DNA of 63,274 nucleotides, the filler included, from Rhizaria sp. SCN 62-66 (lineage: Eukaryota), in assembly GCA_001724265.1 (NCBI GenBank). It is 8 parts of 8 records of this genome, joined end to end, with 100 filler letters (N's around TTAATTAATTAA, not from the genome) between each part and the next. Parts side by side here need not be neighbours in the genome. Positions count along the whole stretch, not along the records: positions 47,437 to 54,192 come from MEDY01000611.1; 7 more parts are not named here. One strand, 5' to 3'. The position numbers and the translations under genes were made by a program. The notes below the pieces were generated by a model. The model was not told the origin of the DNA. It saw only the letters and a program-made list of their open reading frames with translations, and made no database searches. Numbering within the stretch: the stretch's first letter is position 1; each line of letters starts with the position of its first letter. Of this stretch, positions 7,219 to 59,699 are shown piece after piece.

Positions 7219-7318
7219 NNNNNNNNNNNNNNNNNNNNNNNNNNNNNNNNNNNNNNNNNNNNTTAATTAATTAANNNNNNNNNNNNNNNNNNNNNNNNNN
7301 NNNNNNNNNNNNNNNNNN
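7219..7318. other. Artificial contig spacer
   Basis: N44-TTAATTAATTAA-N44 (stops in all six frames). Confidence 0.99.
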
Positions 7319-9597: not shown

Positions 9598-10767
9598 TCA
9601 CTGCGCATCCTCCTCGGGCGCAATAGCAACCAAGATCTTGCCAGTCGCCTCCCTGCTCTCAATGCACCGGTGCGCGTCGGCGACTTCCTCCAGTTTGAAT
9701 GTCTTGTACACCGAGATCTTCATCTTGCCCTCCGCGATCCAACGAAAAACTTCCTCGACACGCTCCTCGAGCTCCGCCCGGTCCAGAAGGTGGTCGAACA
9801 GCGTCGGGCGCGTCATGAACAGCGAGCCGTGCTTCGACAGCAGCAGCGGGTCCACCACCGGCACGGGCCCCGACGCGTTGCCAAACAGCACGAGCGTACC
9901 ACGCTTGCGCAGAGCCTTAAGCGAACCCAGCCACGTATCCTTGCCAACACCGTCAAACACGGCGTGCGCGCCGACGCCGTTGGTGAGCTCTTTCACGCGG
10001 TCGCCAATCGACTCCTTGTCAATGTCGCTGTAGTTAATCACGTGGTCCGCACCGTGCGCACGGGCAATCTCGGCCTTGGCGTCCGTCGACACTGTCGCGA
10101 TCACGGTCGCGCCCAGAGCCTTGGCCGCCTGTGTCGAAAAGCCAAAAACACAAAACAGAACAGAAAACATGAGTTTAATAAAACAATGAGAGTCAACGAG
10201 AGGATTTAAATTAGAACACAACATGAAAAATGACTTCAAATGTGGCCATCATTGTCAGAATCGAGTGCTGCGTACCTGGACGACGAGGCCGCCGACACCG
10301 CCAGCAGCAGCGTGAACAAGTACAGTGTCACCGGCCTTGATCGCGTAAGAGGATCGCACGAGAGCCTGCGCGGTGAGGCCCTGCAGCATAGCCGCAGTGG
10401 CCTGCGCGAGAGAGACGTCCTTGGGAACGGGTGCAAGCTTGGAGGCAGGAAGCACGACGTATTGCGCGTAGGTGTTGGGTCCAACGAACGCAACGCGGTC
10501 GCCGACCTTGACAGACGTGACATCGCTGCCGACAGCAGCGACAACGCCCGCGCCCTCGCGGCCGAGGATCGCAGGCATAGGCAGCGGGTAGAGCCCCGTG
10601 CGGTGGTACGTGTCAATGTAGTTAATGCCCGTGAAGGCGAGCTTGACGAGAACGTCGTCGGGGCGCGCGAGAGTAGGGACGGGGACAGAGGAGAGCGTGA
10701 AGGCCTCGGGGCCGCCGGTGTGGGACAGCAAAACGGCCTGCATGGTCGCGGGGACGGCGGACGACAT
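9598..10767 (-). CDS. NADPH:quinone oxidoreductase (zeta-crystallin/Qor, MDR family); intron 10275-10129
   Basis: GINYIDTYHRTGLYP, LGREGAG, HAAAGGVG, VFDGVGKDT, FGNASG, GSLFMTRPTL and TGKIL motifs; phase-0 GTACGC...CAG intron; ends TGA. Confidence 0.93.
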
Positions 10768-15447: not shown

Positions 15448-18400
15448 ATGCGTATTCTAGTCACACTTATTGCCTTTTCGGCTCTGTTTGCCGCTGCCAT
15501 TGCGGCAAAAGTTGAATCCGTACGTCCCATTTGTGCTCTCAATTCTCCCTCGTTGACCACCTCCCTAGCCCCACTCTGTCCCCTTTCTTAACCGCTTCTG
15601 TCAGCTCACCACGTCCCCCTTTCCGTCTGCGAATACTCCCAATTGATACTTTAGCCGTGGTTCAACAAGGCGATTGCCGACCACTGGAAAGACCCGGTGG
15701 CCAGTGGTGCCCCCGGTGGCTTTATTGCCAAGCTTCACGAGTTTCGTCCCACAGCTGTCGTGGACAAGCTTGACAAGAAGCTGGTCGGTGCCAATGCTAC
15801 CCGCTTTGAGGCGTACAAGAAGCAGGTACGTTCTTCTCCTCGTCTCCTTCTTTCCCCACCCACTCACGCCCGCGTACAACTTCATTTCCCCGCGCTCTGA
15901 CCCGTTCTTTCTCCACCCGCCCAACACCCTCCTCTCACCTTGCTCACGTCCGGATCCTTTCTCTTTCTGGCCGCTTGCCTCCCTGTGTTCGTGTTTCGCC
16001 TTGTGTTACCTTTTCTTCTTTTCCCACAGGTCACGGACGGTTTCTCCGTGATGTCGCGTGTCTTCAACCGCAGCTCTTGTGACGCCATGAGCTTCTCTCC
16101 TCGTGAGTCCACTCCCACTGGTCGCATCCCTCAGTGCCTCCAACCGACCCGTACTCCCAAGAACGAGTCGGAGTGGGATTCCCTCAACTACCTCGCGAGC
16201 CGCTTTGCGCCCATCTTCCACTACCACGTCGACGAGGTCAACTACCCGGAGTCCGTCCTCTCCTTCATGGACCACTCCGAGCTCAAGGACCACCCCAAGG
16301 GGTCGTACTACGGCCTCAACTCATGGGTCTACCGCCGCGGCAGCCCCGACTTCTCGGACGCGCGCGCCTACGTCGATTACGTCATCCGCAACCAGATTGC
16401 CAACATTAAGTACTACATCTTCTACCCCTACTCTGCCAAGCAGTATACGGGCATCAAGATCAAGACCAAGGACATCGACGTGTCCATCGACCGCCTCATT
16501 GACCTCGACCCCTTCGGCGTGCACGAGGGTGATTGGGAGACTGTGGAGGTCCACGTCAACATGGACACTCGCCAGCTGCTCGGCATCACTACCTGGGAGT
16601 TTAACCCCAACAACCTGCCCCGCAAGCCCGTGTACCACGCCGCTGGCAAGCTCAACGTGACCGACACGCACCCCAACCTCTTCGTCTCGCTCGGCACCCA
16701 TAACACGTACATCACCCAGGGCGCGCACCGCCTCTACGCCGCCTTCTCACGCTGCTTCGACGAGAACAAGGACACCGTCTACGTCGGCGCCGATCTCCTG
16801 GACCGCGCTTTCGCCAGCGGTCGCTCGTGGAACACTGCCAACTCGATCCGCGCCATCCGCGACCCGCGCCGCACGACCTCTTCGTGGGTTAACTTCCCCG
16901 GCAACTTCGGCTCCATGGACGGCCTCACCGCCGCCGCCATCGGCTGCCGCGAAGGTGGCCGCTTCAAGATGTCGACGCGCATGGCCGAGCGCCTCGCCAA
17001 GTCGATGGATTTCCTCCCTGCCGAGACGCGCAACACCTTCTCCGAGGGTTATGTCAAGTTTATGTGCGAGTCCCTCTCGTCCACACTCTTCCCCTGGCTC
17101 GACGACCCCATCGGTGTGCCCACGCCCACCACGGAGAAGGCCCAGTCTGCTGCGCTCATCGCCCAGATGAAGCAGTGCGAGTCGCTCGAGACGTACGTCT
17201 CTGACCGCGAGTACGCCTTCGACACGATGCGCAGCCTCTTCAACGTCTCCGAGTTCAAGGCCGCCGAGGCCGAGACCGCGCGCGTGCTCGTGGCGTCGCG
17301 CCAGACCCTCGCCCTCTCTGCCGAGCGCAACTACACCGAGGCCGTGCTCGCCGCGCGCGCCGCCGCAAAGGTGCTCGACACGCGCCGTGACGCTGTCGTC
17401 TCGCAGCAGACCTCGCTCAGCACTGCGCGCGAGGTGCAGAAAGATCTCGACACGCTCTCCCTCTCCGACGCCGAGAAGCACATCGCGCAGACTTACCGCG
17501 AGGAGGTCCAGCAGCAGGAGTCGCGCCTCGAGGGCCTGTCGGCCGCCGTGCGCGAGGCCAAGGCCGCGTTCCGCACCGCTGTCGAGAAGGTGAAGCAGTA
17601 CTTTGCCCTGCTCGAGGCTGCGAACCGCGCGCTGGCCGAAGCCCGCGTCGAGTATGAGCAGCGCAAGAAGGAGGCTCTGCAGGCGCTCCAGGCATACCAT
17701 GTCGCCGAGGGCGAGTACAAGTACGCCGCCAAGAAGGAGGAGGAGATCCGTGCCCACCAGCTCCGCGAGGACCTCAACACTGCGCGCCAGATCTCTGACG
17801 AGAAGGAGCGTAAGCTCGCTGAACAGCGCGCCATGGCCGAGAATGACGCCGCACTCAAGCGTGCGCAGGCCGAGAAGGACCTCGCCGCGCGTCTCGCCGC
17901 CGAGGCCAAGGCCGCCGCGGAGAAGATCCAACGCGAGCAGCTCGAGTACCGTCTTGCCATCGAGGCCGCGGCCGCCAAGCGCAAGGCCGAGGAGGACGCC
18001 ACCCGCATCGCCAAGGAGAAGCAGGCCAAGGAGCTCGAGGCCAAGCGCGCCGAGGCTGCCCGCCTCGCTGCCGCCGTCAAGCGTGAAGAGCAGATCCGCG
18101 CCGCCGCCGAAGCCGCCGCCGCCAAGGCCAAGGAGCTCTCCGACAAGGAAGGCAAGAACGCACTCGACGCCGTTGCCGCCGCGCTCAAGGCTGAGCAGAC
18201 CCGTCTCCGTCTCGAGCAGGCCCGCGCCGCCGCCGAGGCCGCTCTCAAGGCCGCCACGTCGTCCAAGGACCGTGAGGCTGCTGAGAAGGCCGCCGCCAAG
18301 GCCCGCGAGGACGCCAAGAAGGCTGAGGACGAGGAGAAGCTCCTGCTTGAGGCCAAGCGCAAGGCTGAGGCCGCCGCCGCCAAGGCCAAGGCCGAAGCCC

Positions 18401-20214
18401 AGGCTCAGGCCGAGGCCGCCGCCGACGCCAAGAAGAAGGCTGAGGCCGAGGCCGCTGCCAAGGCCAAGGCCGAGGCGGACCAGAAGGCTGCCGAGAAGGC
18501 CAAGGAGGCCGCCGACAAGGCCGCCCAGGAGGCCGCGGAGAAGGCGAAGCAGGCCGAGGAGGACCAGAAGAACGTCGACAAGAAGCTCGAGGAGGAGAAG
18601 GCCAAGGCGGAGGAGAAGCTCAAGGCTGAGCAGGAGGCCGCCAAGAAGCAGGCTGAGGCCGACGCCGCCCGCGAGAAGCTTCGTCTCGAAGAGGAGGCCG
18701 CCGCCGAGCGCAAGCGCGAGGAGGAGCGTAAGATTGCCGAGGCCAAGGCTGCCGCCGAGGCCGAGGCCGCCGCCAAGGCCGCCGCCGAGAAGGCCAAGAC
18801 TGAGGAGGCTCTTCTCAAGGAGCAGGAGGCCGCGCGCAAGAAGGAGGAGGAGGCCGCCCAGGCCGCCGCCAAGGCTAAGGCCGACGCCGAGGCCGCCGAC
18901 AAGGCCGCGCATGAGGAAGCCGACCGCGTTAAGGCCGAGGAGCAGAAGCTGCTCGAGGAGAAGCACAAGGCTGAGGAGGAGGCCGCCAAGAAGCTCGAGG
19001 AGGACCGCCAGAAGGCTGAGGCTGCGGCCAAGGCCAAGAAGGAGGCCGAGGACGCCGCCGCCCGCGCCGAGCTTGAGCGCGACGAATCGATCCGCGAGGC
19101 TCAGAAGAAGGCCGCCGAGGAGGCCAAGAAGGCTGCTGAGGCTGAGCTCCGTGCCGCTGAGGAGGCTGCCGCCGCCAAGAAGAAGGCTGCCGAAGAGGAG
19201 GAGGCCAAGAAGAAGGCCGCCGAGGAGGCCACGCGCAAGGAAGAGGAGGCCCGCAAGGCCGCCGAGGCCGCTGCCAAGAAGAAGGCCGAGGAGGAGGAGG
19301 CGCAGAAGAAGGCCGCCGAGGAGGCTGAGCTGCAGCGCCGCCGTGCCGAGGCCGAGGCCAAGCGCAAGGCCGAGGAGGCGGAGCGCAAGGCTGAGGAGGA
19401 ACGCAAGGCCGCGCAGGAGGCCGCCGACGCCGCCGCCAAGGCCGCCGCCGAGAAGGCTGAGCGCGAGCGTCTCGAGCAGATCGAGCGCGAGGCCCGCGAG
19501 GCGAAGCTGGCGCTCGAGAAGGCCGAGGCTGAGCGCGTCAAGGCGCAGCAGGAGGCCGACAAGCTGCGTGCCGAGGAGGAGCGTATCCGCCGTGAGCGTG
19601 AGGCTGAGGCTGAGCGTCTTGCCTCTGAGGAGCTCAAGAAGAAGCAGGCTGAGGAGGAGGCCAAGCGTGCTGCCGAGGAGGAGGCGCGCAAGCTCAAGGA
19701 GGCGGAGGACGCTGCTGCCAAGAAGGCCGAGGAGGAGCGTCTTGCTAACGAGAAGGCTGAGAAGGAAAAGATCGAGCTCGAGAACAAGCTTGCGCGCGAC
19801 AAGGCCGAGAAGGAGGAGGCTGACCGCAAGCGTGAGGCCGAGGAGGCTGAGAAAAAGCGCTTGGAGCAAGAGAAGCAGGACGAGGAACGCCGCAAGGCTG
19901 AGGAGGCCGCCAACGACGCCCGTGCTGAGGCGGAGCGCAAGGCCGCCGAGGACCGCAAGAAGGCTGAGGCTGAGGAGGAGGCGCGCCGCAAGGCCGCTGA
20001 GGAGGCTGCTGCTGCTGCCAAGAAGCGCAAGGAGGAGGAGGACGAGGCCGCCCGCAAGAAGGCTGAACAGGCCGCCAACAGCGAGGCCAGTGCCGTCACT
20101 CAAAAGGCCAGGAGCCGCTTCGCCAACCTCAACGGTCGTCTCCACGACCCCGTGCCGCCCCGCTGGGCTGAGGTCAGCGCCGAAGTCAAGGGCAAGTTCG
20201 ACAAGGGTGCGTAA
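15448..20214 (+). CDS. Secreted Vps62-like domain protein with very long Glu/Lys/Ala/Arg-rich helix, about 1475 aa; exons 15448-15519, 15655-15825, 16030-20214
   Basis: Signal peptide MRILVTLIAFSALFAAAIAA; two phase-0 GTACGT introns; FAPIFHYH..E.NYP, YYIFYPY, GVHEGDWE, HPNLFVSLGTHNTY and WVNFPGNFG motifs; EEEAKKKAAEE-type repeats; ends TAA. Confidence 0.8.
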
Positions 20215-37899: not shown

Positions 37900-37995
37900 T
37901 GTTACCGTCGACATTCTGCATAAAATTCCAGTCGACAGCTTTTGCCGGTCGCGATTTAAAGGTGGCGTTTCTCGTGTATACACACTTCGTTTTCC
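37900..37995 (-). repeat. Dispersed repeat family, inverted and internally deleted copy
   Basis: Reverse complement GAAAACGAAGTGTGTATACACGAGAAACGCCACCTTTA...TTTATGCAGAATGTCGACGGTAACAA matches 47565-47604 and 38070-38095. Confidence 0.7.
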
Positions 37996-37996
37996 N

Positions 37997-38095
37997 CCAC
38001 CTTTATATGCCCGCCCCGAAACGGCCGCGGGTGGTGTTTGCCCCAGTGTGAGCCTGTGAGACTTGGTATTTTATGCTAAATGTCGGCGGTAACAA
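37997..38095 (+). repeat. Dispersed repeat family copy
   Basis: CCACCTTTATATGC.CGCCCCGAAACGGC...GGGTGGTGTTTGCCCCAGTGTGAGCCTGTGA.ACTTGGTATTT near-identical to 47596-47683. Confidence 0.85.
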
Positions 38096-39853: not shown

Positions 39854-41608
39854 CAGGCGGGGACGGGAGCGCGGGAACCCGGCGAGAGGGGGCGTGGCGG
39901 ACACGGAAAGTAGACGCTGGAAACTTGAGAGGGAGGAAGGGAAGCTTGTGTGGGGGAAGGGGCTGGGCGCGAAGAGATGACGTCGAAAGAAGTGAGGAAT
40001 TTGTGTGAGTACAATTCAGGTGTATTTTTAAAATATGGTGTGCAATATAATCAAAGGCGTCGTCCCAATCTTGCGAATAAACACGTCCAATGAGTGTACA
40101 GACATCCCCTCTCATAGCCACCCGTTGAGCTCAACCCCTGCGGAGACCGAGACCGAAACGCTCATATACCATTTGTGGCTGCGGCGTCGCCACGGCAAAC
40201 GCGCGCTTTGACGATGACAATGCATTTCTGCTGGATCACTTGTTTATAAATAGTTTAAATAGAACATGTAGTACTGACAATATGTTGTATTATTGCTAAT
40301 TGCTGCTTGATTATACATCCTTATGGGGACTGAAAATGCTAGGATCTGAGTGGTTCAAACAGCCGACTTCCAATGCTAATATATCGTGTAGGAATAACGA
40401 CAGTAGTCTTAACCTTATTACACAGAGTATAAGAATCTTCTGTGTTAGCAAAGCGACAAATGCATTGTTTTATGATCCACTCTATATCTTGATCAACCGT
40501 ATTAGAGAAAGTTAACCTGGAGTCTTGATCCTGCTTCAAGGCAGAAACAGCGCAGCGTGGCGCAATGCACGAGCGCTATGAGTGTGGCCGACCAATCATT
40601 GTGCATAATACAGTATGATTACGGTGATGTCGCACTCTAACACGACGATGAAGCTGTCTACGACGCACAAGCAGCGTAGATATAACCGGTGCAGGGTTGA
40701 AGACTTCTGATAAAGCCTTATCTGAGCCAGTCAAGTAGCCAAGATGAACGGCTGATGCAAGATATGCCAAACCCATAGGAACGCTATAAAGTCACAATTA
40801 TTGCATCAGTAGATACAATGAGCCTTCAAACCTTCGTCGACACCAACAAGCAGCCTCTCAAAGCAATCCAATCACGCTAAGGCCGAAGCCAACGGCCTGC
40901 GACGACCGACTCAGAAAGGACGCTTAACAACGTCAGAAAAGACAACAATTATCGCAGCTACGATTTTCGACCAATACAACACCAGTCATTGCGTTGTACC
41001 TCTATTCAACGACGCCTTCCCTGCTTACCTGTCTGCCCTTCGCCCTGTCCGCCCTGCTAGACCCTCGACTCGGCGCCACACTGGCTGGCGGATGGCGACT
41101 GGTGACGACTGTGGCAAGAAAAGTCAAGCCGGTCCAGCACACCGGAAAAGGCGTTTTGAAGTGCAGTGACACGCTAACATCTTGCATTTGCAATTGTAAG
41201 GTGCAGTCTAGTATTATATGATTCGGTTTTTCTATACCACGACTTTTTTCGTGACACTGACGACTATAGTTGGAGCATTTCGATGCATGCCAACGTTCAC
41301 TGCGGAACCGGCCCCGAATGTCCTAAATCGCATCTGCGCCCTTGTAACCCTCTCACAGAAAACATATTTTGTGTATTCTACTGTCTAGATCTCTCCCTTT
41401 GCCCCGCAGCGTGGTTACGCAACTTAAATCCCCGTTCCCACCACTCCCAGCCCCGCCGAGGCCTCGTGCGCTGTCTTCTCTGTTGCGCGCCCGTCGCTCT
41501 CTGCCGTCTCCCTTCACACCCGTCCTGTCACCGCTGCTCTTTTGCTGTGATAGCCATACTTCTCTTGCCTCTTTGTGAGCTCTGTGTACCTTGTCTGCCG
41601 TAACTACG

Positions 41609-44600
41609 ATGCTGTCCCGCACTGCTCTCCTGCGCAACGCCGCGTCCAAGCGCGTCGCCCGCTCCGTCGCCACTCTTGCCGCCAACGGCTCCGGCTCCGT
41701 CTCCGGCGCTGCCCCCAGCTCGAGCGCCAACGCCGCCAAGCCTGCGACCGTGACCGCCGGTCTCCGTGACTTCACTCCCGCCGTCTCTGTCTTGAGCCGC
41801 GCTTTCACCGCCGCCAGCGCCAGCACCACCGCCGCCGCCACCGCAGTCCCTGGCACTCGCGCCCGCACCGCGACCGCTGCCCCCGCATCGTCGTCGTCGG
41901 CAGCCCGCCGCGCCTACTCCTCACAGTCCCCCAAGTCCGCCCTCGCCGCCGCCGCCAAGGCCGCCGCCAAGCGCGCGGGCGCCGGCGCGCCGCAGCAGTC
42001 CCCGTCCCGCAGCTACAGCAACACCGCCTCTGCGGCGGCTGCTGTGGCTGCGCGCGTGGAGACGGCGGCCAAGCTGGGCGCGGCGTTCGGCGTCAAGAAC
42101 ATGGGCCACCCCGCGCTGTGGGCGCCGCAGTGCGCGCGCACGCTTTCGTCCTTCACTAAGGTCGGCCGCGTCGAGGGCAAGACGGCTCCCGACGCTCAGC
42201 TCCGCAAGGCCTTCCCCGAGTACAAGCCCCAGGCCGCCGACTCCGCCGACGCCAACGCGGCCGCTCACAGCGCGAGCTCCAGTATGAGCGCCCCCGCGGC
42301 GACCGTGGCCGCGGCTGCTGCGGCCAAGTCTGCGAGCGCGGCCGCCAGCGCTGAGAGCGCGGCAGTGAGCAAAGGTGAACAGCAGCTGGCCTCGGCGCGC
42401 GCGTTCGTCGCCCAGGCCAAGCACGCCAGCTCTAGCAGCCACGGCAGCAGAGACTCTGACTCGGGCAGCAGCGTCGCCCAGAGCCAGAGCGACGGCAGCA
42501 ACGGCGGCAGCGGCGGCAGCGACAAGAGCAAGAGCAAGAAGGGCGACGGCTTCCGCTGGGGCCGCTTCTTCACCGGACTGACGCTGTCCGCGGCCGCTGC
42601 CGTGGCCGCGGCTGTGGCGCTGGACGAGCGCATTGGCATGGCGATCAAGGACTTCCTCGGTCTGGACCCCATTCACGACCACGAGGAGGACGACATGGCC
42701 GGCATCGCCGTCATGCCAGTTATCCCGGCCCCCGACAAGCCGTTTGAGCACCCGCTCAACCAGTCGAGCTGGTTCCGCCGCACGTGGTTCCGTATCACGC
42801 GCCTCTGCACGCTTGCCCTCACGTTCCTCCCGCTCGGCGTCGCCTGGTTCAAGCTGTGGCGCTCTGACTATGATCCCGAGGTCCGCAAAGCCTTCCTGGC
42901 CACGCTCGTGGCGTGCCTCGAGCGCGCTGGATGCTCGTTCCTCAAGTTCGGCCAGTGGCTCTCGATGCGGCCCGACATGTTCCCGCCCGACGTGATCGAG
43001 GTGCTGTCCGGTATGCGCGACAACGCGCCGTCGCATCCCCTCTCGGCGACGCGCGACATGATCCGGCAGCACTTCCACTGCGAGTTGGAGGAGATGTTCT
43101 GCGAGTTCGAGCCCGCGCCCGTGGCGTCTGGCTCCATCGCGCAGGTGTACCGCGCGCGCCTCAGCCCCGAGTGGGCCGCTAAGGCCGGGCTGCACGATGA
43201 GCGCGGGCGGCCCGTCTCCGAAGTTGCTGTCAAGGTGCGGCACCCGGCCGTGCTGGATGAGACGTGGATGGACGTCGACCTCATCTTCGGCTTCGTCAAC
43301 AACTCGGCCGTCATGGCCGTACCCTTCAGCAAGGACGAGTTCTCGCGTATGATGCAGAAGCAGGTCGACTTCAACTGGGAGGGACACTACCTCACGCGGT
43401 TCGCGTACAACTTCCGCGAGGAGGTCGAGCACGGCCACTTGCGCTTCCCCGCCGTCTCCAAGAACCTGCTCTCCGAGTCTGTACTTATCGAGGCCTGGGC
43501 GCAGGGCAAGTCTGTGGCTAACATCTTCACCAGCGTCGGCGACGGCTTCCTCGCCCCCGGACAGGTCGCCGACCACTCGGCCGCGACCGTCGACCAGCCC
43601 GTCATCGACGGCCTCGCCGACGGGACCGGCGCACCGCTGGTGCACACCGAGCCCGAGCCGAGCGTGTGGGAGCGCGCGCGCGACTGGGGCCGTGGTAAGC
43701 GCGAGGAGTTCCAGGCCATGACCGAGGCCCTGCTCCCTGCTAAGGTCGTCCGTCAGGTACGTTAGTCGTTGTGTCGAAAAATGAATGCTTTTTTCATGAA
43801 ACTGTGTTTTCCTGACTTTTGATTTTTTTTTCTCACTCTTTCTCGCTTTTTTTGTTTTTGGTCTCTTTGTTTATCTTAGGCCCGCCGTGCGCGCCGCGCG
43901 CTACTGCGCGAGGGCGAGGACGAGTACGACCTTACTGCTCTGTCCACGGACCCCCTGGCAGCCGCGACCGACGGACACGCGTTTAACGCCGACCTCATGA
44001 TCAAGAAGAAGCGTCTCGCCTTCACCATGTTCGACATGTTCCTCAAGATGTTCTTGCGCGACAACCTCATCCACGGCGACCTGCACGCGGGTAACGTGCT
44101 CTTCGACACGGCGCACTCGGCCTGCACCGTGCTCGACGCCGGCCTCACTGTGTCGCTCGACAAGGACATGCAGGCCGGCTTCGGCAAGTTCCTCCTCGCT
44201 ATCTGCTCTGGTACGTGTTGCTACTTTAGCTACAATAAGAACGAACTCTGCATGCGAGAGAACGAGAATTAATACCATCTTCACTGCACTTATGTAAAAT
44301 CATATACTCCGATGACATTTTCAAACGTTACATATTTTTGCTAAAACATATGCTCATGTGTGCTATATTCATTGAAATATTTTCGATTGCTGTTGTTTTT
44401 CAGGTTCTCCTGTGGCGCTTGTCGAGCGCATTACCGACTTCGAGGTTTCCCTCCCGGGCCAGACGCAGACCTCCGGCAAGGGCAAGCTTGCTCTGGACCC
44501 CGCTGTCCGCCAGGCCTTCAGCAAAGACATCGACGCCATCTGCGAGAAGTTTTTCCAGACGAGCAAGTTCATGGGCGTCGAGGTAGGCCCGCGCCAGCGC

Positions 44601-47336: not shown

Positions 47337-47436
47337 NNNNNNNNNNNNNNNNNNNNNNNNNNNNNNNNNNNNNNNNNNNNTTAATTAATTAANNNNNNNN
47401 NNNNNNNNNNNNNNNNNNNNNNNNNNNNNNNNNNNN
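47337..47436. other. Artificial contig spacer
   Basis: N44-TTAATTAATTAA-N44. Confidence 0.99.
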
Positions 47437-47564
47437 ACACCACCCTAATAAAGGGAGCTTGGGAGGTCGTTGGGTGCCGTTTCTCTGTGGATTTCCTGTG
47501 AGAGAGTCCCTTTATGTAAAATCTCGCGCGTAACATATTATGAATTGTTATTGTTGTTTTCACA

Positions 47565-47694
47565 GAAAATCGAAGTCTGTAATACACAAGAAACGCCACC
47601 TTTATATGCACGCCCCGAAACGGCTATGGGTGGTGTTTGCCCCAGTGTGAGCCTGTGAAACTTGGTATTTCATACTAAATGTCAATTGTAACAA
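47565..47694 (+). repeat. Dispersed repeat family copy (most complete of three)
   Basis: Matches both 37997-38095 (direct) and 37900-37995 (inverted). Confidence 0.85.
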
Positions 47695-48588
47695 CTGCTG
47701 TATATCAGCTCGTCTTTTATCACGCCTTCATTGATCGACCTAACGGACTTTAAGTCCCTGCTCACGGTCACCCAGCGACGTCGCCTTCTTGACTTATCCC
47801 AAAATTAATCATCACATATGCTTTGAATAAGCGTATTTGTAAAGTATTGTTCTCATGTGCAACAAAGCTGTGGACTAATATTATGATTACTACAAACCTG
47901 TGTACATAGATGAGTAAAAGTCGCGGCAAAGTGACATCGCCTCTAGTTCCCTGTCAATCACTGGGCCTGCTGCCAGCAGCCAGGCGCAGTGTTTCCTGAA
48001 TGAAACACTCTACCCCACGTGTAGTGCGTGTAAACCGATTTTGATGGATAATTTTGAGAATATTTGATTAATTCCAAATAGCATGTGTATTTTTCCAATT
48101 CTTAGCTGCGCTTTTCTTACAGTTCCAAAGCCGTAATGGCCTGCTTTATGTGCTGACCTCGTTTGCTCTCCTTTGGGAAAGAAGCCTGCAACGGCCAGCA
48201 CGGGCAACCATTTTGCGCGCTGATCAAACGTTGAAACACCTTTTCAATAATTCTAAAATGCTTTTATATTTAAGTTTCAGCTATATTTGCACATTTTATT
48301 TCCCATATCTGCGGCTGTAAGCTGATAATTTACTTTTCAGTGATCGGTCCTTCATACGACCAGAGAATTCACGCGACGAGGCTTGTGAGGACATAGACGC
48401 GTGAACCTTCGACATCTCGCCAGCATTTGTGCTTTAACGTTCAACTCACACCACTTACTTGTCCAGTTTTTCCTCAATTACTCTTATTCCTTCCTTAGAA
48501 GCGCTCTCTTTGGCACTTTCCTCCAAATTGGATACCTGCAAGGAGCAGACGACTATTTTCCGTCGACCCAAAGACGCAAAGCCGGCCA

Positions 48589-51500
48589 ATGTTTTTGCGG
48601 TTGGTAACTCTCTGGGCATTTCTTGGCATATGTGGCCTCACAGCTGTTTCAACTGTGCAAGGCACCCCCACTCCAGCCGGCCTTTCCTTCACAGCAACGC
48701 TTGACCACACCTCGACAGTATGCCACCCCTCGCGCGGTTACACCTCAGTCTCACTGGCAGTTGCCGTTTCCGGTTTAGACGCTGCCTCCGACATCGTGTT
48801 TACGCTGGCCTGGTCATGCCCGGCCCTGTCACAGCTCGACCTGACCGCCCTTGCACTCACATCAACCTCAGCCGGCTGTATCGTTGACTTTACTGCGCCC
48901 TACAAGGTCCACTGCTTGCGCACCCCCACTGCTGCGTTCACAGTCGCAAATGTCCGCGTGACCTTCAACACACCCCGCGCCTTTAGGGAGTCTGTCAACG
49001 TGCTGGCGACCTGCTTCGGCGTCAAGGCCAACGGCGTTTCAGTGCCCGCCGCCGCCTCGGTGGCCGACACGCTGCTGCTGCCGCTCCCGCTGACGGAGCC
49101 CACGGTCACGCTGCTGCTTGGCAATGCCTATGCCGACAACGCTGCTTATCGCGACGACGGTAAAGACAGCAACCGCACCGCTGCGCTCGCTGTTCATGTC
49201 ACGCTGACAGTGCGGACCGAAGGGGTCACCATTATTTCAGTGATGCTTGACGACGACAGCGAGATAACTCTCGGTATCACCTCGCCAGACATCACCGTCA
49301 CTGAGCTCACCGATGATGAAAGCGACAGCGTCCTGAAGATGTGCATGGCAAACCGCGTCGCCGGCGGACGTACCCTGGAGCTGCGCTGTCTCGGCATGTC
49401 ACCGGGGCCTGTTGCCTTTACGATCTCGCCTGTTTATGTCAACACACAAATCGGCAACAGCGCTGGCAGCAATGTTAGCAGCAGCAAGGTTTATACCAAT
49501 AGTTTAGTGGGCTTTGCGGGGGAGATCTATGTGGCGTTACACGGCGTACCGCAAAAAGCTACCCTTCTCTATACGACCTCAGGCGATGGTACGCTTAGCT
49601 CCGTAGACGGCGACTCCACAGTCACTAAACGCGCTGGCTCTGCTCCGATAACACTGAAATCGTCCTCAAAAAACAGCCCTGGGAAGCAACAACATATGTT
49701 AACACAAGCGTTAACAGCGTCTAATAGCAGCCATAGCGGAATCAAAGCAAGACCGCTCGAAACTCCTCCGTGGTTTCAGCTTGTTGGAACGTACGCGAAA
49801 GTTACAAATCTCGGGGCCCGTATTCGTTCTGTTAACCTCGCGCTCAATCTTATTCTACCGAGCAATAACGGCGGTTCGGGTGTGAGGTTTTCAATCACAT
49901 CTACTGGTTGCGACGTTAACTTTGCTGCTTGCTCGATTACTGGGGCTCTTACGCTCTCCAATCGCAATGTTAACTCACTAGTCGTAAATGTTCCGGCGTC
50001 ATGTACAGCTGGCTCCATCTGCTCTGGCGCAATAAGCGCGGTCATTGTCAACGCGCCTGTGGAGTTGGCGAACTGGAACCAAACACTCTCTGCGCAATGC
50101 TTCACCGGACAGCTTGTCATCTCGAATGTTAACGAAGGTTCAAGTGTAAGTGCTAATAACACAGTCCCACTATACGCGGCAATTGATGATCTGCCTATGT
50201 ATTCGTATGTTAGCGATATTGCGCCTGTACAACCAACCGCAATGACGCTGCTAAGTGGTGACACCTACGAAACGCGCTACCAATGGAAGTACGGGTCGGA
50301 ACCAATTAAGATTATTGGAGCAAACCTTGCCGGCCGCTCAAACCGCACGTACACTATCACAAACTCGTGCCCGAAATTGATGCTGCAGAACTCAGCGGGT
50401 GTAACAGTCACTAAATTTGATTTCAACATGGACTTCACCGAGTTTGATATAACTGCAGTGTATTCTTTTCAGGTTCGAGTTGATATATCGAATTCGTCGG
50501 GACCATTCCCATTTTCGTGTTTTTCATTGCAAGAAACGGCCTCGGGCACGTTTCTCATTGCTGTCTCACCAGCTGCCGTTTTCAATTTTGTGTACCCAGT
50601 TAGCTTCTCAGTCGGTCTTGCTGGAACCAGTCTCCTGTCGCTTTCGGCTGTCAGTGCCACTCAGAGCAAGTTTGCAATGACGTACGAAATCAACTTTTTT
50701 CCCCACGCGGTACTTGCTCCAGGTAGTCCCATTCAAATTATTGATTCGCTCAAGTGTTTTTGCCCTGACTTGAATGGTGTTACCCTTATGACGTCAACTG
50801 CAGTCGCAATTGGACAAACAAAACTTGATGCGACAAGCTGTGTCATCTAGCCCGGTGATTACGTCGCTACCATTACATGTAGCAGTGTAATTGCAGATCG
50901 CGTGTGGAACTCGATCTACATGTACTGTCCAATCGGATTTTCTGCCGAGGAGCTCCACAACTGCATACCTAACAAAATGCTACAGTCCGTTAGGCTTTCG
51001 TATGACGGCGCGGCGTCAGTTGCTCCTGCTCCTGTGTTTTTCAACGTCGGCAATGAGGTCATTCTTGCTCCGCGCTATATCAGCCGCAGATTCCCTGGTG
51101 GATTTGACCCGGCACTGGGTACCGATTTGCAGGTTGTTCAAACGGTGCAAATTGTGATGTACATTATCACAGCTCCAACTGTTCCATTCTATTTGAATGT
51201 TGAGTCAAGTACATTTACATTTGATAAGCCCACCCCATCATCGGGTCGAATGAATGACCAATGTTCTTCGTACAGTACAATCGCAGTGGCTTGCACAAAG
51301 TTGACTGGATATGACGCCGTAAACACGTTTAATGTCAACAACATTTTTGGCACCCTTGCCAATAGCCATGATTTGTTTGGCTCCGGTGCTATGAAGACAT
51401 CAATTTCACCAACAACAGTTCGTTTTGCTGCTACAACGGCACAATGGTATGCATCAGGTGCAGAGTACAGTGGTGAATATTTCGGCTACGTAATCACCGG

Positions 51501-54192
51501 CAGCAACGATATTCCGCTATACCAGACAATCCGTTTCACTCCCAGTGTTTACATTGCAGCACTTCACCCAGATTATGCTGTGTCAACCACATATATTGTT
51601 GACTTTTAGACAAAATGCAATGCTGCTATGGCTGCCGACACAACAAAGTCTCTTTCCAGGATTGTCCCTTCTTCAAATGTTGGAGTCGTGATTGTGATGA
51701 ATGCTGGCAGCTTTAGTATTAAGACGGACTGCACCTTAGGCACCTTCTCACAGTTTACAGGATTACACGCCGCTTTTCTTGTGCGCTCACGCTACATTAA
51801 TTACGTGTCCACCGGACTTGTATCCTCGTGTTTCGATGTTTCCGCTGGGGGAATCACGGAAAGTTACTCACCCAAGAGTCAAATCGGGCCGTTTAATGCC
51901 ACAGCAGCCTCTCCTCTGTTTTACGGCATTCCTGCTGCGTTTAGTGTTGTGAGTCTTTCGGCGATTAGCACCACGTACGCATTCAACTTGTTCATTGCCC
52001 CCCGCTATTCTCTGGAATCAAAAGTTGCCATCTCCATTGAGTTTGACTACATGGAGTGTTCGATGCAGTTTCTAACATCGATCCAATTCAACACGTCTGT
52101 ACCTATTACAAACGTAACAACTAGTCGGGGTTTATATCCATTTAGCAGCTGCATCCCAACAATGGCATTGGACCTCCAAAGCGCAATTGGGATAACATGT
52201 ATCGGCACCTTTGACCCCGTGACTCACGGGTCTATTGTAGTTACGGTTCCCTAGCTTGTCATTAGTTTTGAAGGAAGTCTATACTCTGGCCGACTCGACG
52301 GCAATTGCTTCAAGGTGACCGTAGCGCGTCAGTATGCGGGTTTCACAGACCCCGATACCCACAGTATGGCGGGCAGCATGGTGCTGCCGTCGCTGCTAAG
52401 TGTCCATCAGTCGACGGTGTTTGACGACGGCGCGAATAACAGCACATCGACTTCTATGTCTGTGTCATTAGGTCACATGATCTTTCCCGCAAACAAGGCG
52501 CGCGAAATCATCTTTGGTTTTTCGTCGAGTCGTTTTGTGCCTTATAACCTTACAACTCCCCTCAAACGCGGAGTAGACAACGTCACGCTAGTAACCCCCT
52601 CTATGGCAGTTGTCTCTGGAAACGCGCTGTCGTTAAGTATGACAGCCGCGTCAGACGTGATTTGTAACGCCTACTCGTCATATGGCGCATGCCTAGCAAC
52701 GCCTACTGGCGCTTTTCCTGGCACTGCGTATACACGCCCACAGGTGCTGCTTGACCACACTCATGTGTGGGATAAGCGCAGTGCACAGGTTACCAGGCTT
52801 GCTGGCGTTGCACCCATGCGCCGGCTGCCGCTCGCGGTGCAGCATTCGTCAACTCGCTTGATCGACACAAGCCTCAATGTGAATCTTGCCAGTCTGGGTG
52901 AGGCGGGAATCACGCTTGTGCTCAGGTACACGACCACTTTTCTCACGTCGGCCAAGCATCTTATTACGTTACCAAGCACGTTGTTTTATGTTTCGACGAG
53001 TACAAGTGGTATCGGCTTTGACTCTCTCAGTTGCGTCAGCAATATCTGCACAGGCAACGCGTCAGTTAACACGTCATTTACAATCACGATCGCTGGGATT
53101 GTTGTCTCGACCGCACCTTACGAACTATTGCGCTCTAATATTGCAATTTATGACGCTGTCACGGTTCCTGGCAACATTTCCCTCTCAATCTCCGCGTATG
53201 CGGCACCGGAGCTGCGCGCAATTGAAGGCTATGAGCCTACAGACAGGCTCATTGCGTACAGTACCGTCCAGTCTACCGACTCCTTTTTGGGACGTATTTC
53301 TGGCCCTATGCCGCCATATAATGAAGATTACACCGTTAGTGTTACCGGCTCTGCCGGCAGCTTTAATCTGACGTCGCGAGTAACACTCGCGGACACGCGC
53401 ATCTTGATCAAGCCCACTGCAAATTTTAATGTCAAAATCGCGGTAGATTCGCCCCACCTGCTTGCCGGCGGGTCCCCTACGCTTAGTAGCGTTGCCGTGT
53501 TCCGGCCCGGCACGCCGACTTGTACGGTTCCAGTTGTCGCCAATGTTGCATCGCTCGGGGATTGCTCAGGCTTTCCACAAGACACCATAATCAGCCTGGA
53601 GATTACCACAGGGCACACGCAGCTTCCCGTTCTCCCGGTCTGGATTGACGTGCTGCTTGGCAGCGATAAATTTGTGCGCTTCCCGATCAAACTGCCAACG
53701 ACTCCGCTCCCACTAACAATTTTGCCTGTGACAGAACCGGTTCCTGAAACCTCAAGCTTTGTTTTTACCATAATTGATGGTCTTGGCTTTAAACCGGATC
53801 CTGCAATGACGCCTTCCCTTCAACTCGCGCTCGAGCTCGCTAACACTGACGCCACACTTGCTGGCTGTGCCGTCACCGCCAGTCAAGTGACATGGCGGAG
53901 TACCATGTGTGCGCTTCCTCAGTGCACTCTTACGGCGGCGACTCAGAGCGTGCCGGTCGAGCGGCTCACCTGCACCGTCACGCTGGCGGATCCGGGGTGC
54001 GCGGCAACTATGGCTCCTAGCGCGCTTGGTCCGTTTTTGATTACGCTCAACTCGTGCGTCAAGTATGACACAGACCGCGCGCGCTCGCCTATGCTGGCGC
54101 TCACGGTTAGCGAGAGCTCTACCCACATCGCACTGTGGCGCGGATCAACTCCGCTGACGAACGCGGCGAGCAAACTCACGGTAAATTTTGGC
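48589..54192 (+). CDS. Giant secreted or surface Ser/Thr-rich, beta-strand-like protein, at least 1868 codons, with three in-frame TAG codons; 3'-truncated
   Basis: Signal peptide MFLRLVTLWAFLGICGLTAVS. ORFs at 48589, 50902, 51628 and 52315 share one frame, separated only by TAG at 50848, 51607 and 52252; no TAA, TGA or frameshift. Confidence 0.75.
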
Positions 54193-54292
54193 NNNNNNNN
54201 NNNNNNNNNNNNNNNNNNNNNNNNNNNNNNNNNNNNTTAATTAATTAANNNNNNNNNNNNNNNNNNNNNNNNNNNNNNNNNNNNNNNNNNNN
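54193..54292. other. Artificial contig spacer
   Basis: N44-TTAATTAATTAA-N44. Confidence 0.99.
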
Positions 54293-56740: not shown

Positions 56741-57560
56741 CCCTTACAGGCACTTAGCATGATACGATTACTCCGCGAGGTTAGACTTCAGTAAGTACAC
56801 AAACCGTACTTCATGTTAGCCGTCAAGGTCTTTGCTTCAAGCTTCCAACTATATTTGGCTCCATTTCAAGCTTCTCTTTGGTTGTAGCTTGTCAAATTCC
56901 GTTCCAAGTAGTATCTAAACAAACATCATCAACGATCGTTGGAATTGTTATTCGTGTGATTATTAAAGCTTATGATGTACCGTATTTTCAAACGTTGTAT
57001 TCTAGGTGACCGGTTTAAAACAAGAGTATGCGTCTCAAATTTAAATAATAAATTGTTGTAAACTATGTTGCAAAATGCAAGGTACTGAAGCACACCACAT
57101 CCTGGGTAAGATGCACCGCAGGATATCGACGCGTTCAGAGGACAAGCCATTGACAAAAAAACACCCAGAGTGCCTTTCTGACACTAAACGGTGACACTCC
57201 ACGCTAAGTCGGAAAACCAGGAATCTTAATCTCAGCTCGCATTCTCAACACAGGTCCACCGTCGCTGTTGAGCCCATATCAAGGAAGGCTATCAGTCGTG
57301 CCGATTCGTAGTTTGAAGCTAGTGGCAAATCCTGGGGATTTAGGCATTAAATATCTTATGTACATTGCCCGCATAGTCGCGTCTTTCTTTTATCAGCACA
57401 CTCAGGTAAATATAAGCTTGCTCAGCGAAGCTTCATCCCTACATATCACGATCCAGAGATGCTATAAGTTTTAATGTAAAACAAATCTGCTTCATGGTGG
57501 ATATGATTAATTCTACTGTTCTTGTTCAACTTGATAAATTCCCGCAATTGTGAGGTCGAG

Positions 57561-58450
57561 ATGGGAGGATGCTTGTCACCTGAAGAGCGTCATCAGGTCC
57601 GCGATCTCCGCCGCGCTGGCCGCAGTGTCCATCGCATCGCACGCCAACTTAAAGTCTCCGAGAGTACTGTCAAGTGCTACAGCTGCCCGTGCCAGCCGGT
57701 GATAGATCGTCGTCCGGTCAAGGTCGGAAGCAGCGCCGGGAGGAGTTCGCTGCTATCGTGTTACGTAAAAACAACTCTAAGAATGCCGGCAAGTACAATA
57801 TTGTGATAAGGAAGATGAGTCTTAACTTCTCCTTTGCCACCTTCCACATTGCGCTCAAGCTCGTGAAGATCCGTTTCGATTAGCCCAGTTCGAGCAACGT
57901 CAAGAAGCGTCCGGCCTTCGCCAAGAAGTACCGCACACACAACTGGAGCAAGACCATATTCATCGACGAAAAGGTTTTTAAGATGGGCCGCCGGGGCGCC
58001 GCCGTTTATTAACGCACTGGCGAGCAGCCGGTCAGGGAAGTCGGCGACTACAGTGGCGTGGTCGCGGTCTGGTGGGGCATATGCAAGGCGCGACGAATCG
58101 CCCCCGTGGTCGACAAGGGAAACCTCGACAGCCCTGCTTTCACCAAAGTGCTGGAGTGAGGTTCCATTGGGCCCGGCCTGAGCAGCTACGTCATCCGGAA
58201 AGACAACGCTCGGTGTCATGTGGCCGCAGAAACTCTCAGCTACCTCAAGCACCGTCGCCTCAACGTGCTTCGCGACTGGCCCGCCCAGTCGCCCGACCTA
58301 AACCCGATCGAAAACGCTTGGGCCCCGCTTGACCGCGCGGTGCACCTTAAGGAGCCGAAGAACAAGACTGAACCGAAAGAGCTGGTGTTACGCAAAATCA
58401 GCAGGCTCGCGTCAGAACCCTCGTCGACTCGGTTCCGTCGCGCCTCGCGG
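57561..58450 (+). mobile_element. Decayed Tc1/IS630-type DNA transposase (D-to-E spacing 35 by my count)
   Basis: HTH LSPEERHQVRDLRRAGRSVHRIARQLKVSESTV; WSKTIFIDEK; VWWGI; DNARCH...WPAQSPDLNPIENAW; frameshifts and stops. Confidence 0.9.
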
Positions 58451-59699
58451 CGGTTTGCCGCAAGCGCGGCGCCCCTGGTGACTAAGTGGGTAAGACTCCG
58501 TTTCGTTACGTTAGCGCGCGCTCGCATTACTATATTATATAGTAGCGTTGTAGGAAAGTTGGTCATAAAAGGGTCAAATAATGCATAGCAAACTAATATA
58601 TCCTTGTGGTAACACCACGTACGTAGTGACGCTCTTTGGTAGATTTTAGCGGAGTCAAAGATTCGCACAATCAGGTGCACTACCTTGGCGACGTTAACGT
58701 ACGGTCTCAGTTTTGTAGTACGCCGTGTAGACTTCGCCAAGGTAGACATTTTTAGCCTCTGGCCCGGCGCGGGCAGCGAGACTAAAAATCTCGCCGGCGG
58801 ACCTTAAAGCGTTGGTATTGTTCGGTTTACGGTACCCTTCCGGCCATTCATCCGTTCCATCCTCCCGCTTCTCGACATCACTGTCATCGTCGCGCGTAGC
58901 CATGGCAACGCTACCGAGCATGTTGTGTGTGGACCCAGAAGTTGTTGGTGTTAGGCCCCGTGTCAATGACTCGCGCTTGAATCGGCGTATCGACACTCTC
59001 TGAGATCATGTATTGCGAAGTAACTCACCAGAGTTAGGTGCTTGACAGTGGGCCGGTTGGATCACAGTCAGGAATTTATGTGGTGCGATTTTATCGCCCT
59101 CTGATAGCTATAAAGATCTCATTAAGCTATATGTAAGTGAAGGTAAAATCGTACCCACTCGTTTTATCGTGACTTATATTGGAGCTAGTTTGGTTTAAGC
59201 AACTAAAAATGCGTTTACTTGTGAAAAATTCTTCATGGTCGCCGTCCCGCTCTGGAGTAGGGGCGGGGAATCTGCACATCACGCTGCAGAAAGAGGGTGC
59301 GGTTTGAGGTTATTGTTTCCGCAGCGCGCATCTTGCTCTCCACTGTACACTACTAGGACGGTAACTTGTAGCCATCGTGCTTTGTTCTCTGCGACTTCTG
59401 TTATCATCCGTGACGACTGGCTCGGGGAGTTTAAGAAGATGTGTTTCGAGAGTCAGGGCAGGAATTGGAAACCATTGCAAGCTAAATTATGGAAGAGAAT
59501 GACGTAGTACTGGTGCCATTATTTCCCTAGGTGCAGTGCAGATCCAACAATGCCATCTACAATGACAATAGAGATTCTTCTTTGAGCGGTTGCGGCAACA
59601 AAATTTACTCGAATCTGCATCTCCGCCCGAACATCTTCGCCACCCGCTGTCAGGATGAGCACGGTAGCACGGCAGCGTGCTGAAACACCATCAAAAGGG

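Follow-up and report, generated by a model that had tools for sequence, protein, structure and literature searches.

We analyzed a 63,274-nucleotide stretch of DNA from Rhizaria sp. SCN 62-66 (GenBank assembly GCA_001724265.1), referred to here as the window, and focused on a long plus-strand reading frame at 48589-54192 that is interrupted by three TAG codons (the candidate gene). The window is made up of at least eight joined contigs of about 7-11 kb each, separated by 100-base linkers (N44, TTAATTAATTAA, N44) that start at 7219, 14516, 21819, 28948, 36197, 47337 and 54193; open reading frames (ORFs) that seem to enter N are cut at contig ends. The features of the candidate gene are given below, where P numbers denote proteins found in our searches.

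47437..54192, plus strand: contig carrying the candidate gene, flanked by artificial linkers on both sides (47337-47436 and 54193-54292)
48589..50847, plus strand: ORF piece 1, 753 codons; the same 753-residue protein (P0125) is found on 6 public contigs
48589-48663, plus strand: putative signal peptide of about the first 25 codons, from our own reading of the hydrophobic N-terminus with no predictor run
50848..50850, plus strand: TAG1, codon 754; Leu in P0126, Ile or Ser in P0130 and Thr in P0131, in a collinear alignment
50851..51606, plus strand: ORF piece 2, 252 codons, the same as P0122; matches the end of the paralog P0126 with an identity of 88% or more
51607..51609, plus strand: TAG2, codon 1007; Ala in P0124 and Ser in P0129, while P0126 terminates exactly here
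51610..52251, plus strand: ORF piece 3, 214 codons, the same as P0123
52252..52254, plus strand: TAG3, codon 1222; Gln in P0128, a variant about 99% identical that reads on, and Gly in P0124 and P0129
52255..54192, plus strand: ORF piece 4, 646 codons, leaving the contig end; P0129 extends about 740 residues beyond

Retranslation of 48589-54192 yielded 1,868 codons in which the only in-frame stops are codons 754, 1007 and 1222, each of them TAG, with no TAA, no TGA and no frameshift in 5.6 kb. This agrees with the description in the first-pass annotation of the locus, and an independent contig described below is identical. The remaining two plus-strand frames over the same interval contain 25-30 TAA, 12-23 TAG and 36-43 TGA codons; the openness of the candidate frame is therefore far beyond chance and marks a real coding frame. 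The same annotation had placed the end of the frame at 54192, which proved incorrect: there is no stop at that position, the frame enters the N44-TTAATTAATTAA-N44 linker at 54193, and the gene is cut by the contig end with its 3' end missing. The GC content at third codon positions (GC3) of the candidate gene is 0.53, compared to 0.7-0.9 in most genes of the window. By this measure the window holds two classes of genes, the majority at 0.7-0.9 and a second class at 0.5-0.58, which comprises the candidate gene and a WD40-like gene located beside transposon remnants.

The three TAG codons are real and not errors of one assembly. A 3,158-bp metagenome contig from JGI (L001) corresponds to positions 49380-52537 with no differences and carries all three TAGs. 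The region of TAG1 (50664-50966) was likewise recovered without differences in contigs of two sequencing runs from different studies (X1 and X2). The candidate contig was at least partly present in 11 of the 13 listed runs, representing eight studies, and four runs held 0.81-0.89 of the sampled words. The organism is an uncultured protist with intron-containing genes, and the metagenomes in which it occurs are from wastewater and bioreactors (eight studies, 2015-2025).

The candidate region was also found in a polyA RNA library, for which DNA carry-over is possible. One contig from this library (51524-51817) showed no differences from the window, contained TAG2 and was unspliced, and a second contig (52334-52661) was also identical to the window. 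The RNA-library contigs span 51.3-53.5 kb, leaving 48567-51278 without RNA cover, and the contig over TAG3 differs from the window at seven positions and may carry either TAG or CAG there. The RNA runs were available as assembled contigs only, which places expression level, strand and low-level editing outside their reach. The first-pass annotation had proposed that RNA be mapped across the three TAGs; for TAG2 an unspliced, identical contig was found in an RNA library, at the level of contigs and not of raw reads.

Variant copies that are 8-10% apart coexist in the same metagenomes, and the 3' half of the gene is 2-4 fold deeper. Two changes, 53392 G>T (Asp to Tyr, as in P0124) and 53340 T>C, were found in three DNA runs, on two contigs per run, and the same changes were carried by the RNA-library contig 53251-53477, so that a P0124-like paralog also appears in the RNA library. 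In runs X1 and X4, DNA contigs joined position 52843 to 54055 (1,211 bases skipped, with a shorter side of 25 letters); this may represent a shorter paralog or a repeat-mediated join. Of 256 copy differences, 40 were listed, and 30 of these fall within the ORF. These 30 comprise 10 synonymous and 20 non-synonymous changes, distributed 12/7/11 over codon positions 1/2/3. The 10:20 ratio fits near-neutral divergence and fits equally diversifying selection on the whole family.

The candidate gene is a member of an undescribed multigene family of giant secreted Ser/Thr-rich proteins. The family proteins range in size from more than 1,900 to about 2,500 residues, with Ser and Thr together at about 22-26%, Cys at about 2%, few charged residues, and a richness in Val and Ala as well; internal repeats are weak, with a period of about 620 residues. 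No Pfam family was matched by the four candidate pieces (E <= 0.01) or by P0129, P0126 and P0131 (E <= 1), and P0124 gave a single sub-threshold chance match. Apart from the window's own pieces, the protein searches recovered P0124, P0126, P0128, P0129/P0132, P0130 with its variants, and P0131. An exhaustive search of representatives returned seven proteins, three of which were the window's own pieces, and a search for near-full-length homologs gave no match. A scan of JGI metagenome contigs yielded L001, the identical copy of 3,158 bp, as its sole match and gave no DNA of a paralog; neither viral contigs nor those of prokaryote genomes contained a relative when scanned, and no further family members were found in the window. 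The nearest Protein Atlas clusters by features are eukaryotic proteins, mostly of Perkinsozoa (score 0.93), which serves as a lead only, while the structural matches there rest on a model with a predicted local distance difference test score (pLDDT) of 0.39. AlphaFold2 run on a seven-row alignment produced an unusable model (mean pLDDT 34, predicted template modeling score 0.30).

The open ORFs of the paralogs measure 1,803, 1,612, 740 and 718 codons, and their identity to the candidate gene is mosaic, at 40-50% in some blocks and 90-100% in others. For instance, the identity of P0126 climbs from 40% to 98% toward TAG2, with the last approximately 70 residues identical, and P0124 is about 40% identical early in the gene and about 90% identical at codons ~1432-1607. 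Such mosaic identity points to gene conversion in a fast-evolving family. Because its last 70 or so residues are identical to the candidate gene, the stop that P0126 shares at TAG2 could have arisen by gene conversion or could reflect a chimeric assembly.

We aligned the candidate protein with its relatives and found the seven-sequence alignment to be collinear at TAG1, TAG2 and TAG3. A BLASTP comparison with P0124 (718 residues) gave 53% identity over 716 residues, gapless through TAG2 and TAG3, and P0128 (99% identity to the candidate) begins at the same Met after TAG2. The columns aligned with the TAGs are variable and favor no single residue, with two or three relatives at each column, all of them members of a fast-evolving family. 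On this alignment, the premature stops appear where the relatives have sense codons, as in a pseudogene or a nonsense allele, and the scatter of sense residues at these columns would be expected from random nonsense changes. The Leu codon TTG and the Gln codon CAG are each one base from TAG, although the codons of the relatives were not read as DNA. The suggestion in the first-pass annotation that either Gln or Leu would read naturally finds agreement in the Leu at TAG1 and the Gln at TAG3; it does not extend to TAG2, where Ala and Ser stand, and the residues are inconsistent overall.

We considered whether each TAG might be the 3' end of a stop-free intron with a length divisible by three (3n), an alternative raised in the first-pass annotation. 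The introns and intron sites read in the window were as follows.

10129-10275, minus strand: intron of 147 nt, GC 0.36, T 0.44
43757-43879, plus strand: intron of 123 nt, GC 0.32, T 0.54
62007, 62346 and 62805, plus strand: intron sites with donor and acceptor style as on other contigs

Five donors were read directly (GTACGC, GTACGT, GTACGA, GTGCGT and GTACGT), with YAG acceptors. The intron donor of this organism is an unusually fixed and extended GTACGY, replaced once by GTGCGT and once by GTACGA, and the introns are T-rich and 120-150 nt in length. Pyrimidines precede all three TAGs in the candidate gene, and one real acceptor, in the WD40-like gene, is TAG, both of which would suit splicing. 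However, there is no insertion relative to the paralogs at any TAG, and the 150 nt upstream of each TAG have a GC content of 0.45-0.47 and a T content of 0.27-0.31, compared to 0.32-0.36 and 0.44-0.54 in the introns. Four donor-like sites were found upstream of the TAGs; three of the four, including both GTACG sites, would produce an intron of non-3n length, and the fourth (GTGAG at 51949) would produce an intron of 306 nt, roughly double the 123 and 147 nt measured. The gapless paralog alignment, the composition, the donors and the RNA-library contig that is unspliced at TAG2 together rule out introns as the source of the TAGs. Sequencing or assembly error is contradicted by the identity of the independent assembly L001, and we give the two explanations, intron ends or errors, a negligible chance of being correct.

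The first-pass annotation had proposed that UAG may be a sense codon in this organism. In its general form, this would make UAG a regular Gln or Leu codon throughout the genome, which is the situation in Iotanema spirale and in the rhizarian exLh. The three in-frame TAGs with no other stop, the absence of TAG from gene ends, the Gln opposite TAG3 in the 99% variant and the Leu opposite TAG1 are in line with such a code. We counted TAG codons in eight other genes of the window and found none in 6,870 codons (11 ORF segments), compared to three in the 1,868 candidate codons; about 11 would be expected at the candidate's rate. These eight genes contain 1,270 codons that are one step from TAG, compared to 198 in the candidate gene, and the difference between the candidate gene and the other genes is significant both per codon (Fisher p = 0.0098) and per neighbor (Fisher p = 0.0025). 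The TAG-free genes include the conserved INO1 (512 codons), ABC1 and a quinone oxidoreductase, and a gene of 1,424 codons rich in Lys, Glu and Gln has 480 one-step neighbors of TAG and no TAG. Two of the contigs compared, contig 6 (which carries ABC1) and the GC-poor last contig, are tied to the candidate's genome because contig 6 and the candidate contig have a high-copy repeat in common (47596-47694 against 37997-38095, 89% identity over 99 nt) and the last contig matches the GC-rich ones in the style of its introns.

Eight gene ends could be defined in the window, six with TAA, two with TGA and none with TAG. The absence of TAG noted in the first-pass annotation therefore stands, while its count of 11 ends (eight TAA and three TGA) does not. 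At a TAG share of 20%, none in eight would be expected about 17% of the time, making this a weak result when taken alone. The long ORF at 41579-43765 ends in TAG, but this TAG lies inside an intron (GTACGTTAG). Three transfer RNA (tRNA) genes were found in the window (Glu-CTC, Leu-AAG and Asp-GTC), none of which has a CUA anticodon; a search of the window against Rfam returned tRNAs only, and the window contains no eRF1 gene.

The UAG-only codes named in the first-pass annotation, with Leu in a rhizarian and Gln in Iotanema, agree with the account in an extract of PMC5304391. According to that extract, UAG stands at conserved columns, with 384 occurrences over 71 genes for exLh and 204 over 126 for Iotanema, which amounts to 1.6-5.4 in-frame UAGs per gene with conserved genes included. 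In the candidate gene, by comparison, the TAG columns are variable and the residues differ. Since the eight other genes examined are without TAG while the known UAG-only codes use UAG widely, we consider a genome-wide reassignment very unlikely. What survives of the proposal is its statistical argument, with the TAG-only pattern, the lack of frameshifts and the absence of TAG terminators, now extended by apparently clean in-frame breaks in the paralogs.

We favor, with modest confidence, the reading that the organism uses the standard code and that the candidate gene is a copy or allele disabled not long ago by nonsense changes. Single codons would have mutated to TAG at three places in one copy of the family. 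Translation would end at codon 754 with an N-terminal fragment of at most 753 residues, and the downstream 1,114 codons would no longer be translated but would still look intact, since the nonsense changes are recent. We infer that translation really stops at the TAGs and that the copy has lost its function or represents a null allele; one variant of it (P0128), from another allele or strain, keeps Gln at TAG3. A young pseudogene had been listed as an alternative in the first-pass annotation, and it is the best fit to the sense codons of the relatives and to the TAG-free neighboring genes, although it leaves the TAG-only pattern without frameshifts unexplained.

Several observations weigh against a disabled copy. 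All three stops are TAG, which has a chance of 0.06-0.07 under random single-base changes on the codons of this ORF, and there is no frameshift in 5.6 kb. As the nonsense share of random substitutions on this ORF is 2-3%, three nonsense hits would imply about 100-150 substitutions, normally accompanied by some indels. The candidate region turns up in the polyA RNA library (51524-51817 and 52334-52661), and none of the eight definable gene ends is TAG. The paralogs also seem to be broken cleanly, by in-frame stops. Three alignment columns separate the end of P0131 from the start of P0132, and the homology reaches both of these ends; the longest contig is 124,639 nt for each of P0131 (740 residues) and P0129/P0132 (1,773/1,803 residues), and 8,149 nt for both P0133 and P0124. 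On five contigs, P0124 ends at a column where the candidate, about 93% identical to it, has Lys (AAG). As AAG to TAG is a one-step stop, the P0124 stop would be TAG, the DNA of the paralog not having been read. The paralog ends recur on 4-7 contigs. We discounted the TAG-only pattern and the lack of frameshifts, since the locus had been picked in the first-pass annotation for these very properties; the paralog breaks and the absence of TAG from gene ends are new and independent, and they are weak or indirect. We also tried a C-to-T process resembling repeat-induced point mutation (RIP), with which stops without frameshifts fit, but the 23 CAA codons of the frame would then also yield TAA, and the TAG-only pattern is left unaccounted for.

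The same observations are accommodated by the proposal that UAG is partly or conditionally decoded, either as a leaky stop, by a suppressor or near-cognate tRNA, or as a sense codon specific to a gene set or a life stage, which we regard as possible and rather unlikely. Under partial decoding, TAG would be nearly neutral in a redundant, fast-evolving family from which TAA, TGA and frameshifts are purged, while essential genes would avoid TAG both in frame and as terminator. This would cover the TAG-only pattern, which otherwise has the low chance given above, together with the missing frameshifts. It also fits the frame that remains open for 1,114 codons past TAG1, the apparently clean in-frame breaks of the paralogs with one inferred TAG, the occurrence of TAG2 in an RNA-library contig, and the gene ends, with TAG at none of eight and a TAA:TGA ratio of 6:2.

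For reassigned stops that are used unevenly, Amoebophrya sp. ex K. veneficum offers a precedent: according to an excerpt of PMC6394959, about half of the annotated transcripts are without reassigned stops and dynein paralogs carry from none to more than 100. With such unevenness, the absence of TAG from the neighboring genes would not by itself be decisive. On the other hand, TAG is 7-fold rarer in the candidate frame than its typical one-step neighbors (3 compared to about 20 each), no suppressor tRNA is found among the three tRNA genes of the window, and the residues opposite the TAGs are inconsistent (Leu, Ala/Ser, Gln/Gly). The stop codons of the paralogs are known from protein ends and not from DNA, and part of the statistical surprise is selection, the locus having been chosen for its pattern. 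To our knowledge, there is no natural case of a nuclear stop codon that is read only in one dispensable family, and a literature search on reassigned stop codons in protists of activated sludge gave nothing relevant. The broader claim is that UAG reassignment in the organism has reached an ambiguous intermediate stage, with readthrough frequent enough for a redundant surface-protein family to tolerate TAG and with the 'broken' members of the family as full-length genes; we hold it as tentative and on the whole doubtful.

Restorative RNA editing, in which UAG would be deaminated to UGG (Trp) at some life stage to give a full-length protein, was also evaluated. Editing of this kind is UAG-specific in frames that are otherwise intact, and would cover the TAG-only pattern, the lack of frameshifts and the transcription. 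In extracts of PMC10776026, PMC4817773 and PMC11156358, 71 such 'pseudogenes' are described in Fusarium graminearum, and the process belongs to the sexual stage of filamentous ascomycetes. TAG2, however, is unchanged in the identical RNA-library contig, with the reservation that this is one library and that partial or stage-specific editing would escape it. No significant hairpin was found at the TAGs (z-scores -0.64, +0.67 and +1.28), with only TAG1 in a loop, and Trp occurs in the relatives at no TAG column. No fungal protein was present among the 120 best matches of INO1, suggesting that the organism probably does not belong to the ascomycetes; the identity of INO1 is 88% with metagenome proteins and about 70% with its best named matches, which come from ichthyosporeans and rotifers. 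We therefore consider editing highly improbable. A small but appreciable part of our belief lies outside all of the explanations listed.

A number of other features were observed in the window. The repeat shared by contig 6 and the candidate contig is as follows.

47437..47694, strand not assigned: high-copy repeat at the 5' end of the candidate contig, also in contig 6; depth 6,480 compared to 38 for the gene in run X1

This repeat has about 170 times the depth of the gene in X1, and many contigs break at 47535. The second copy (37954-38095) is partly inverted and adjoins a single N at 37996, and the repeat gave no match in Rfam. Decayed mobile elements were recognized at two places by reading translations, with no family search: a Tc1/mariner-like transposase spread over several frames at 57507-58612, and copia-like integrase and reverse transcriptase fragments at about 55.5-56.8 kb. 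The 1,424-codon gene (15940-20214, plus strand) has a low-complexity, coiled-coil-like region of near-pure Lys/Glu/Ala over its last approximately 1,000 codons; all six frames are open over this gene, and its AT skew reaches 0.58.

If the candidate gene is only a disabled copy, the finding is ordinary, and its main use is to caution against taking a broken frame with TAG stops alone, in a multigene family, as evidence for a new code. If the TAG-only pattern were to hold across the other members of the family, the organism would represent a natural ambiguous intermediate in stop-codon reassignment, which has long been postulated. Its repeated occurrence in metagenomes from bioreactors and wastewater would make such an intermediate directly testable. 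In both cases, the locus establishes a family of giant secreted proteins that is undescribed and matches no Pfam model.

We compared the locus with four known systems. The archive of variant surface glycoproteins (VSG) in Trypanosoma brucei holds nonsense-bearing pseudogenes in a variant surface-protein family, usually with frameshifts and with all three stop codons mixed. Both are large, mosaic, fast-diverging secreted families in which some copies are broken by stops where others have sense codons, and in both the broken copies are still transcribed. The family described here differs in that the three stops read as DNA are all TAG, there is no frameshift, the paralog breaks also look clean and in frame, no known domain is present, and there is no link to antigenic variation. 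With exLh and Iotanema, the candidate gene shares in-frame UAG without in-frame UAA or UGA, and terminators dominated by UAA (UAA:UGA of 56:15 and 104:15 there, in the extract of PMC5304391, and 6:2 here). In those organisms, however, the same extract places UAG in most genes and at conserved Leu or Gln columns, whereas here it is confined to one gene family with variable columns and inconsistent residues, and the conserved genes have none.

The resemblance to Amoebophrya lies in the uneven distribution there, with about half of the transcripts free of reassigned stops and with numbers that differ greatly among paralogs (excerpt of PMC6394959). Amoebophrya differs in that all three stops are reassigned there, with tens to hundreds per gene and in conserved genes (same excerpt), compared to three TAGs in one poorly conserved gene here. 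Finally, the edited genes of Fusarium and Neurospora are likewise 'pseudogenes' that are intact apart from UAG-only premature stops (extracts of PMC10776026 and PMC4817773). In those extracts such editing is known only from the sexual stage of filamentous ascomycetes, whereas the present locus shows no edited base in one RNA contig and no hairpin, and belongs to an organism that is probably not a fungus.

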